Positions 16,752 to 25,700 of a stretch of DNA of 64,000 nt are shown piece after piece. A program made the position numbers and the translations under genes. The stretch lies in the NCBI GenBank assembly GCA_048569615.1, contig JBLIRK010000007.1, positions 1,174 to 65,173 on the forward strand, in the 5' to 3' direction. Positions within the stretch are counted from its first letter, which is position 1, and each line of letters starts with the position of its first letter. The notes below the pieces were generated by a model. It worked only from the letters and a program-made list of their open reading frames with translations. It did not search any database and was not told the origin of the DNA. This DNA is from Thermoplasmatota archaeon. Its GTDB lineage: Archaea > Thermoplasmatota > Penumbrarchaeia > Penumbrarchaeales > Penumbrarchaeaceae.

Positions 16752-16795
16752 TAACCGATATATTGGTTTGGTTAGGCGGATTAGCCCAAAATAAA

Positions 16796-16913
16796 TGGCG
16801 GACCCAGAGGGATCGACTGCGCATCAACTCCTTCGGAGTTATGCTAGCCTTTGAACACTGTGTAAAAGTGGTGTTCAAAGGACCAAGGTTCGAATCCCAA
16901 GTTTCAAGGGCCC
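16796..16913 (-). ncRNA. Structured tRNA-like element containing a copy of the tRNA-Arg 3' end with encoded CCA
   Basis: Minus strand: GGGCCC...GGGATTCGA..CCTTTGAACAC-12 nt-GTGTTCAAAGG..GCATAACTCC-GAA-GGAGTTGATGC..TCGATCCC TCT GGGTCC GCCA. Plus-strand 16798-16813 matches the tRNA 3' end at 16958-16973 in 15/16 nt. Expression is unknown. Confidence 0.45.
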
Positions 16914-16958
16914 GATATTCTATCTCATCCGAGAATAATTGAAATTCGATAGAATAAG

Positions 16959-17032
16959 CGGACCCAGGGGGATTCGAACCCCCGTCACCGGCTCCGAAGG
17001 CCAGCAGGATATCCAGGCTACCCTATGGGCCC
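16959..17032 (-). tRNA. tRNA-Arg (anticodon TCG), no intron, CCA not encoded
   Basis: Reverse complement GGGCCCATAGGGTAGCCTGGATATCCTGCTGGCCTTCGGAGCCGGTGACGGGGGTTCGAATCCCCCTGGGTCCG folds as a cloverleaf: acceptor GGGCCCA/TGGGTCC, anticodon loop CTTCGGA, T-loop TTCGAAT, discriminator G. Confidence 0.95.
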
Positions 17033-17067: not shown

Positions 17068-17195
17068 TCCTTTGAGGGCAGGCTGGCATATACTCCCGAA
17101 AGGAAGGGGTGGGTCGGGGGTTACACTTCGAAGGAATTCGAAGAATGAAGGAGAAGATGCGGATGCTCACCCTGTTTTTCTCTTGGGGAGAGAAA

Positions 17196-17227
17196 CAGCA
17201 GGATAATACAGGCTACCCTACGGACCC
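17196..17227 (-). pseudogene. Degenerate 5'-half copy of tRNA-Arg (acceptor 5' strand plus D-arm)
   Basis: cagcaggataatacaggctaccctacggaccc aligns to tRNA positions 17002-17032 with 28 of 32 columns identical. It is also preceded by TTTATAG (17258-17264, minus strand). Confidence 0.7.
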
Positions 17228-24744: not shown

Positions 24745-24840
24745 GATAATCTCAATTATCATAATACGAATTATCATATTTAATCGCTTGGTGGTCCGGG
24801 TCCCAAAAAGATAATTATTTGCTTTTCACTAGGGCCCCCC

Positions 24841-25332
24841 ATGACCCTCCTCTCCGACCAGGACATCATCTACAAGCTCGAGAACCGGTCGATGAAAATA
24901 GACCCGTTCAGGGAGCGCAACCTCACCCCCAACGGATACGACCTCACGATATCCGAGGTCTATACCCGGAATCCGGAAGGCAAGGTGACGATCGGGGCTG
25001 TATACCTTGAACACGGTGACTGGTGCCTTGTCTCCACCAGGGAGTTCCTGGAGATACCGCCGAACATCTGCGGGTCGCTGCATCTCAGGTCATCCTTCGT
25101 CAGGAAGGGTCTATTGGCAGGTTTCGGACTGGTTGATGCCGGGTTCAAGGGAACACTGACCTTTTCAATTACCAATGTCGGACCGGAGAGGGTCGCTCTG
25201 CCCATCGGGGAGCGCATCTGCCAGATAGCCCTGCACCAGCTCTCTTCAGATCCGCAGCACCTCTACGGGAGCCGCTCCGGAACCTATCAGGGGCAGAGGG
25301 GAGTGACCCTGGACGGTGGAAAGAGGGTCTGA
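24841..25332 (+). CDS. dcd: dCTP deaminase/dUTPase family protein (possibly a monofunctional dUTPase)
   Basis: PNGYDLTI, LRSSFVRKG, VDAGFKGTLTF, ERICQ, YQGQRGVT. The position of the deaminase catalytic Glu appears to be Ser. Confidence 0.85.
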   Translation: MTLLSDQDIIYKLENRSMKIDPFRERNLTPNGYDLTISEVYTRNPEGKVTIGAVYLEHGDWCLVSTREFLEIPPNICGSLHLRSSFVRKGLLAGFGLVDAGFKGTLTFSITNVGPERVALPIGERICQIALHQLSSDPQHLYGSRSGTYQGQRGVTLDGGKRV

Positions 25333-25334
25333 GC

Positions 25335-25700
25335 ATGAAGGGGGATATCTGCAGGGACCGGGGATGCAGCTTCTGCTGTCATGAAACGGAGATGATCCTG
25401 ACCGAGGATGATATCTCGAGACTGATGGAGGCCGGCCGCAGGGATTTCTGCGACAGAAGTACGAAGCAGCTCAGGAACAGGAACGGGAAATGCGTGTTTC
25501 TGACGGAAAAGGGAGACTGCTCCGTTTATCCTTTGAGACCGCAGGGTTGCAGGCTCTACCCACTCATAATGAAGCTGCCGGGCAGGAAACCGATCATGGA
25601 CAAGGTATGCCCCCACCACGGCAGATTCTCCATGGACCCCGAGGACGTGATATCGCTCGAATGCCTGATAGCCACCTTGGAGAAGGAAGGGTCCTTATGA
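25335..25700 (+). CDS. YkgJ family cysteine-cluster protein
   Basis: CRDRGCSFCC, CVFL..CSVY..RP.GCRLYP, C-terminal CP. Confidence 0.85.
   Translation: MKGDICRDRGCSFCCHETEMILTEDDISRLMEAGRRDFCDRSTKQLRNRNGKCVFLTEKGDCSVYPLRPQGCRLYPLIMKLPGRKPIMDKVCPHHGRFSMDPEDVISLECLIATLEKEGSL

Follow-up and report, generated by a model that had tools for sequence, protein, structure and literature searches.

A family of structured, geneless elements behind tRNA genes of uncultured Thermoplasmatota, most likely small mobile DNA cassettes

Introduction

Tyrosine integrases that target tRNA genes reportedly include a T-loop sublocation class, described by Williams in 2002. Integrative elements of the T-loop class are marked by a direct repeat that runs from the T-loop to the 3' end of the tRNA, by an intact tRNA gene, by a fixed orientation, by tandem build-up at tRNA genes and by integrase-bearing relatives in the same arrays. 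The element family presented here, named type A, has all of these traits but differs from T-loop-class elements in several ways: its units are about 165 bp long and geneless, they contain an antisense arm matched to the tRNA together with three covarying hairpins, one family serves at least 20 tRNA species, and no cognate integrase was identified for it.

One copy of type A lies in the window, which is the whole stretch of 64,000 nucleotides of a Thermoplasmatota archaeon contig (JBLIRK010000007.1) that was analysed. An earlier note, made from the letters of this stretch, had described a tRNA-mimicking element with a CCA end downstream of tRNA-Arg and had left two readings side by side, a co-transcribed tRNA-like small RNA and a miniature tRNA-anchored element or attachment-site scar. 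The analysis favoured mobile DNA: most likely, the element is a small cassette and not a gene for a tRNA-like RNA.

Results

Structure of the element at the tRNA-Arg(TCG) locus

The element measured 119 nt (16914-16796, minus strand) and was located 44-45 nt downstream of tRNA-Arg(TCG); the distance of 45 nt given in the earlier note was reproduced when the tRNA was placed with ARAGORN and Rfam. The whole unit at this tRNA gene was 163 bp long and contained no genes. The parts of the unit, and the integrase found elsewhere in the same genome, are shown in Table 1.

Table 1. Parts of the type A unit at the tRNA-Arg(TCG) locus (positions in the window) and the tyrosine integrase of a unit on contig C12
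Feature	Position	Strand	Basis or remark
tRNA-Arg(TCG), intact	16959..17032	minus	ARAGORN; Rfam RF00005, 55.5 bits
Copy 1 of the repeated 3' segment (tRNA-Arg(TCG) positions T55-G73)	16977-16959	minus	
Spacer hairpin, 9-bp stem (16956-16948 with 16924-16916), A+T-rich loop	16916..16956	minus	Sequence
5' arm: acceptor-complement CGGGCCC, 9-nt internal loop, antisense T-arm GGGATTCGAACC	16887..16914	minus	
Conserved junction; reads AACCTTGGT together with the arm end	16882..16886	minus	
Hairpin A, 11-bp stem	16848..16881	minus	
Hairpin B (core); stem-loop 16844-16821, loop C-GAA-G	16817..16847	minus	
Copy 2: direct repeat of the tRNA 3' end, T-loop to discriminator, plus CCA	16796..16816	minus	
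T-rich run beyond copy 2, probably the original terminator of the tRNA gene	16788..16795	minus	Sequence
Tyrosine integrase, 242 aa	C12:68150-68880 (L172:553-1281)		Contig ends before the far boundary of the unit

All the helices that had been read from the letters were found again on the minus strand. GGGCCC (16913-16908) pairs with GGGTCC (16805-16800), which is followed by G at 16799 and CCA at 16798-16796, and this gives the acceptor-like stem that had been described. The inner pairing of GGGATTCGA (16898-16890) with TCGATCCC (16816-16809), the perfect 11-bp hairpin, the bulged hairpin of about 10 bp and the inverted, antisense T-arm (16887-16898) were likewise present. A CCA is encoded after copy 2 and none after tRNA-Arg, as had been claimed for this copy. 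The statement that the 3' 16 nt repeat the tRNA end exactly was true in part: the offset of 160 bp and an exact run of 10 nt, CTGGGTCCGC, stood, while identity over the 16 nt was 13/16. Copy 2 of the window element is slightly decayed; it matched the tRNA end at 15 of 19 positions and contained a 1-nt deletion in its T-loop part, and the element had the lowest covariance-model score among the seven copies that share the core. The window was also confirmed to contain no integrase, the sole Pfam Phage_integrase match of the genome being on another contig.

Folding of the 119 nt as RNA, one of the checks that had been suggested, gave -47.9 kcal/mol and z = -4.8 against 200 shuffles. When the whole region was folded as RNA or DNA, the T-arm and acceptor 3' strand of the tRNA, the spacer hairpin and the arm formed one long hairpin beside hairpins A and B. 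The spacer hairpin is part of this long hairpin (H0) and prolongs the palindrome made by the tRNA tail and the arm. In the minimum-energy fold of the whole transcript, the tRNA 5' end was paired with copy 2 and the rest was packed in hairpins. ARAGORN and Rfam detected the real tRNA-Arg as the only tRNA-like structure, and no cloverleaf was detected in the element.

A separate and unrelated mini-element was observed upstream of tRNA-Arg(TCG) (17081..17227, minus strand). It consists of a diverged duplicate of tRNA positions 1-32 (17227-17196) and then a conserved module of about 115 nt, after which the TATA-like box of tRNA-Arg(TCG) is found at 17067-17060. Near-identical upstream modules are present before tRNA-Arg(CCG) and tRNA-Arg(GCG) on other contigs, the duplicate upstream of tRNA-Arg(GCG) also taking in the TATA-like box and leader, and analogous upstream units were observed in genomes G001 and G002 (loci L035 and L036).

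Copies, architecture and distribution of the family

The genome-wide search for similar cassettes beside other tRNAs that the earlier note had proposed was carried out with a covariance model built from 32 copies. With this model, 11 full copies and 1 truncated copy were detected in this genome; every one followed a tRNA gene of its own, in the same orientation. Partial BLAST matches within the genome were located on six further contigs, in each case 35-65 nt downstream of another tRNA gene and on the strand of that gene. In 6 of the copies here the 24-nt core of hairpin B was the same, and one more copy deviated from it at 3 positions.

Members of the family are non-coding and hairpin-rich and about 165 bases long (range roughly 140-190 bp). 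The order within a unit is tRNA, palindromic spacer, antisense arm, junction, hairpin A, hairpin B and direct repeat. The spacer hairpin is conserved in the family, 52 of 60 elements having a spacer fold of 6 bp or more, and in 46 of 73 distinct copies the junction together with the arm end read AACCTTGGT. A large proportion of the distinct elements (72 of 87) had a same-strand tRNA gene within 330 nt upstream. The remaining 15 were array-internal copies, copies at contig ends, minus-strand or overlapping sub-hits of adjacent units, and about four elements for which neither a tRNA gene nor an upstream repeat was found (L045, L109, L142 and L165), with L045 sitting behind a degenerate tRNA fragment instead of a tRNA gene. 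Among model hits with a recognised partner, none was placed on the strand opposite to the tRNA. The one family spans at least 20 different tRNA species.

The model produced hits in all sampled genomes of the same taxonomic family (16/16) and of the sister family (2/2), both uncultured Thermoplasmatota, with 2-22 copies in each genome. Outside these two families, five further genomes were the only ones hit in the sample of 151 genomes of the phylum, and roughly 200 recurrences were counted in 24 of the 151. An architecture-pattern scan over one genome per species gave 95 hits in total, 80 of them listed. Among the matches listed, about 40 were in Thermoplasmatota MAGs, and 27 of these had a same-strand tRNA 25-60 nt upstream. 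Bacterial pattern hits proved to be antisense real tRNA genes and were set aside as noise. A pattern match behind a same-strand tRNA-Val was also observed at L059, in a record titled as a Planctomycetota bacterium MAG, and it may be due to chance, to a binning error or to a true outlier.

Neither the species-representative genome collection nor 40 relatives contained the exact core motif, and the family was visible with the architecture pattern and the covariance model only. A scan of Rfam at the gathering score and at E up to 10 gave no family for the element; permissive cmscan overlaps were all sub-threshold (tmRNA_permuted, 12.6 bits against 47; mir-7385, 14.2 against 69). A search of viral contigs gave no match, and no extrachromosomal or viral copy was found. 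The family is provisionally considered undescribed, as no paper on it was found in the literature covered, which represents part of the field.

Covariation and strand of folding

Covariation analysis showed that 95% of the cells were paired across 73 distinct sequences. Double-sided changes were present in 23 of 28 pairs (429 cells), a level reached by none of 500 shuffles and approached by no slid register, and the question of covariation in relatives, raised in the earlier note, is answered by a strong signal. The sequence of hairpin A varies between copies with the pairing kept, and all 11 of its pairs had double-sided changes. In hairpin B, compensatory changes were found in nearly every pair across many genera.

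Mismatched pairs of the G.T type numbered 39 and those of the A.C type 9, and the folding strand is therefore taken to be the tRNA-sense strand. The loop of hairpin B was C-GNA-G in 31 of the 73 copies. This motif is said to be a classic and exceptionally stable DNA triloop, described by Hirao and colleagues, and it is a hint of single-stranded DNA, not proof.

Arm, copy 2 and CCA across the family

The arm is the antisense of the T-arm (GGATTYGAACC) and is usually joined through an internal loop to a complement of the acceptor 3' strand. Pairing of its acceptor part was stronger with the element's own tRNA (-10.0 kcal/mol) than with other tRNAs (-6.5 kcal/mol), and values at -8 kcal/mol or below were obtained for 68% and 30%, respectively. 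The arm matched even the odd T-loop of tRNA-Thr(CGT), and where copy 1 and copy 2 differ, it fitted copy 1, the real tRNA. The paired acceptor stretch starts and ends at different positions between copies, and about 32% of the elements had no good acceptor arm. At the same tRNA in two congeners, the arms paired with different parts of the acceptor strand.

In most elements, copy 2 agreed with the tRNA 3' end at 17-19 of 19 positions; it began at T54, T55 or C56, and at least 5 elements had a truncated form. A CCA after copy 2 only was observed once, in the window element, against 11 cases with a CCA after copy 1 only. The window copy is thus peculiar in its encoded CCA and its exact acceptor-like stem, neither of which is a family trait. 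The idea that an encoded CCA marks element-borne copies was rejected by count, as no correlation with the presence of an element was found in this genome.

Runs of at least 4 T were found behind copy 2 in 42 of 60 elements and behind copy 1 in 19 of 60. Since the T-runs are mostly behind copy 2, the original tail and terminator of the gene seem to be the distal copy. The distance from the tRNA end to the T-arm motif of the arm had a median of 51 nt, compared with about 25 nt in other units.

Tandem units, turnover and neighbouring arrays

Four identical 143-bp type A units were found in tandem behind tRNA-Arg(GCG) in genome G010 (L149, G010:C20, about 24840-25390). At least two tandem units were present in a related species (L111), and tandem units were also found in G001, in G004 and on contig C16 of this genome. 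Occupancy differed between congeners: this genome and G001 had 5 occupied tRNA species in common and more than 15 that differed, and tRNA-Arg(TCG) of G001 carried no type A element. Of 29 elements whose inner modules were compared, 20 had their nearest neighbour within their own genome, and only 4 had it at the same tRNA species. One subfamily occurred at Thr-CGT and Arg-CCG in this genome and at Leu-TAA and Thr-TGT in G001. At locus L215 (G001:C70, element 261-387), an element behind tRNA-Gly(TCC) had a copy 2 that matches the tail of tRNA-Gly(GCC), possibly the trace of a move between two tRNA genes.

Type A units also stood at the head of longer arrays, in which the tRNA is followed by the type A unit and then by units bounded by 14-16-bp repeats of the tRNA end. 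Tyrosine integrases were found in such neighbouring units on contig C12 of this genome and at locus L191 of G007. The C12 unit lies directly behind the type A unit of tRNA-Val(GAC) and holds the only tyrosine integrase detected in the genome (a weak match), and a geneless mini version of the same unit is present at tRNA-Val(CAC). The order in G007 was tRNA-Gly, type A, mini unit and integrase unit. On contigs C25, C65, C47 and C8 (L134-L137), arrays behind tRNA-Met, Ala, Ile and Glu contained units bounded by 14-16-bp tail repeats, with one or two cargo genes per unit: HTH_10 with GNAT acetyltransferase, AbiEi/AbiEii, methyltransferase and AAA_14/DUF4143 ATPase. The layout of these arrays resembles that of gene cassettes. 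At least 16 of the 34 intron-free tRNA genes of this genome carried a nearby same-strand duplicate of the tail.

Among the 87 elements no autonomous type A unit was found, and none that contained a recombinase gene or cargo of its own. A Xer-like recombinase, strong in relatives, was not found in this assembly (90% complete), and searches of this genome for serine recombinases and Y1 transposases gave no hits. At the syntenic site within the genus the flanking genes differ and the exact boundary is unreadable; with no precise empty site to align, the inserted segment is therefore delimited from the repeats and T-runs only.

Other features of the genome

At C4:77047-78252 (L221:9045-10253, minus strand), a solo Cas1 was observed that measures 402 aa and is extended at its C-terminus by about 100 aa. 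No CRISPR array, Cas2 or polymerase was present nearby, the neighbours being a clostripain/PKD protein, a serpin and a peroxiredoxin, and the gene may be a casposase remnant. A casposase was considered as the mobiliser of type A and rejected, since no orthologue of the solo Cas1 was found in G001, which has 22 elements, or in most of the family. A casposon-derived element was rejected as well, on a repeat of 19-22 bp compared with the 14-15-bp target duplication of casposons.

In its intron mode, ARAGORN reported that several tRNAs (Trp, Tyr, Ser and Ala) on several contigs of this genome have introns, which measure 20-110 nt. Calls of kilobase 'introns' are implausible and are probably artefacts of duplicated tRNA fragments.

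Discussion

The window element is best explained, at a rough probability of 0.55, as a slightly decayed copy of type A, a non-autonomous integrative mini-cassette at tRNA 3' ends in which the folded single strand is under selection. The inserted DNA starts with a tRNA 3' segment, which often includes CCA, and continues through the palindromic spacer, the antisense arm and hairpin A to hairpin B; the tRNA is left intact, and the second copy of its 3' end and a T-run terminator are at the far side. The cassette would insert into the segment of tRNA genes between the T-loop and the 3' end. A site-specific recombinase would insert and excise it in trans, with a crossover at or near T54/T55, and the candidate enzymes are a tyrosine integrase, for example that of neighbouring units, or the host Xer. 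Such an enzyme would read the folded tRNA-sense single strand, in which the arm and the copy of the tRNA tail may form a duplex that mimics the double-stranded target, presumably capped by the spacer hairpin at one end and by hairpins A and B at the other. By analogy, the reaction could be a folded-site recombination like that of the integron attC site or of the folded attachment site of the CTX phage.

Several points stand against the cassette reading. Neither an autonomous type A unit nor an extrachromosomal or viral copy was found, and no syntenic empty site could be aligned exactly. A fixed attachment sequence cannot alone explain arms that are matched to each tRNA, and at the same tRNA in two congeners the arms differ in the part of the acceptor strand with which they pair. 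For the core site of an ordinary tyrosine recombinase, tail and arm stand too far apart. RNA would account just as well for the strand asymmetry and the covariation.

The last of these points leads to a functional non-coding RNA co-transcribed with the tRNA, with the arm and copy 2 as its ends or with the spacer taken in as well, which is a possible though rather doubtful explanation. Its fold could neutralise the duplicated tail and so let the real tRNA fold and be processed correctly. Another option is that tRNAs or tRNA precursors are the targets of its arm, which has complementarity to the T-arm of nearly every tRNA. As strong T-runs are mostly behind copy 2, the tRNA promoter could plausibly drive co-transcription, and a role as RNA also agrees with the constant position of the element downstream and on the tRNA strand, with the strong covariation and the excess of G.U over A.C (39 vs 9), with the stable fold (z = -4.8) and with conservation of the family over the whole order-level group. 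The tRNA-like small RNA with a CCA end, as the earlier note had pictured it, was weakened, however: the tRNA-like traits are unconserved, the ends of the arm vary or the acceptor part is missing (in about 32% no good acceptor arm was present), at least 5 elements have a truncated copy 2, and the CCA confined to copy 2 is a quirk seen once. The arm fits the real tRNA over copy 2 and, in a transcript, would compete with the cloverleaf. Identical tandem units, differing occupancy between congeners and modules common to different tRNAs are the behaviour of mobile DNA. The element also had no Rfam match, and by eye the spacer had no conserved TATA-like box of the tRNA-gene type.

A wider form of the cassette reading is an integron-like system on tRNA genes, in which tRNA 3' ends would be the places of capture and release for small circular cassettes, either empty or with genes for defence or modification. 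Recombination would use a folded single-stranded site that resembles the double-stranded tRNA gene, and the arm would be re-templated for each tRNA. It is put forward as a speculation that is improbable in this full form.

The reading as a tRNA-anchored mini-element or attachment-site scar held up as the better supported of the two earlier readings, but not as a neutral scar, since a structured, repeated family with strong covariation was found. According to the neutral version, the copies are leftover attachment-site duplications of larger integrase-bearing elements with no selection on their structure. In its favour, integrative elements that target tRNA genes classically leave a direct repeat of the tRNA 3' end as their footprint, the same arrays hold integrase-bearing elements, and the window copy is somewhat decayed (15/19 in copy 2 and the lowest score of the seven core-sharing copies). 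This version is nevertheless very unlikely, being contradicted by the compensatory changes in hairpins A and B with 95% pairing over 73 distinct sequences, by the conserved junction motifs and by the 2-22 copies in every sampled genome of the family. The earlier note had named a lack of other copies and of compensatory changes as what would leave a neutral scar, and because many of both exist, that argument falls away.

An intron in the T-loop, with copy 2 as an alternative 3' exon, is hardly credible. The archaeal splicing endonuclease would then remove the stretch from position 54 to copy 2, and the tRNA body would be joined to copy 2. The minimum-energy transcript fold does pair the tRNA 5' end with copy 2, but the tRNA is complete without splicing (ARAGORN, Rfam), no bulge-helix-bulge (3-4-3) motif was seen on inspection of the two junctions, and copy 2 is often truncated or mutated, so that the window copy would give a mismatched T-stem.

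If the mini-cassette reading is true, a structured cassette without genes has colonised many tRNA genes throughout an uncultured lineage of Thermoplasmatota, and the family would represent a rare archaeal recombination site that is defined by structure, not sequence. It would then have to be asked how a mobile unit gains an antisense copy of each new target. If the RNA reading is true instead, the family would be a new and widespread tRNA-linked RNA family in archaea. For annotation, such units are a warning, as the tRNA fragments, pseudo-acceptor stems and CCA ends to which they give rise may be mistaken for tRNA-like genes.

Comparison with known systems

Tyrosine-integrase elements apart, four other kinds of systems resemble type A in part. 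The window copy has in common with tRNA-like RNAs of the mascRNA type an acceptor-like stem, a discriminator, a CCA and a probable tRNA transcription unit. Type A differs from these RNAs in having no cloverleaf, an unconserved tRNA-like end and no match to the Rfam models, and it has no free T-loop because the T-loop bases pair with the arm.

The MITEs and PATEs of the IS200/IS605 group are, like type A, small, non-coding, repeated, hairpin-rich and non-autonomous. In type A, unlike in these elements, the terminal inverted repeat comes from the target and differs for each tRNA, and copies insert strictly downstream of tRNA genes. In the searches that covered Y1 and serine recombinases, no transposase that would suit a MITE reading was found.

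The folded site that the CTX phage uses with Xer is similar in that the inverted half-sites of type A, about 70-90 nt apart, could fold into a duplex that mimics the target, with the middle unpaired. The target of type A is a tRNA gene and not dif, however, and no phage genome is involved; a single-stranded intermediate is only inferred here.

Type A differs from integrons in that attC core sites (R boxes), an IntI-type integrase and attI are absent, the base of its stem reading GGATTYGAACC with TCRAATCC and not the RYYYAAC/GTTRRRY of attC. It also differs in its many tRNA-gene anchors per genome, its 19-22-bp tRNA repeat and its archaeal host. The likenesses to integrons, including ORF-less cassettes and integrase-less attC clusters, are an imperfect inverted repeat in which structure is conserved over sequence, strand-specific folding, unpaired bases in the stem, arrays at a fixed chromosomal site, repeats that are homogeneous within a genome, and neighbours with toxin-antitoxin, acetyltransferase and methyltransferase cargo.
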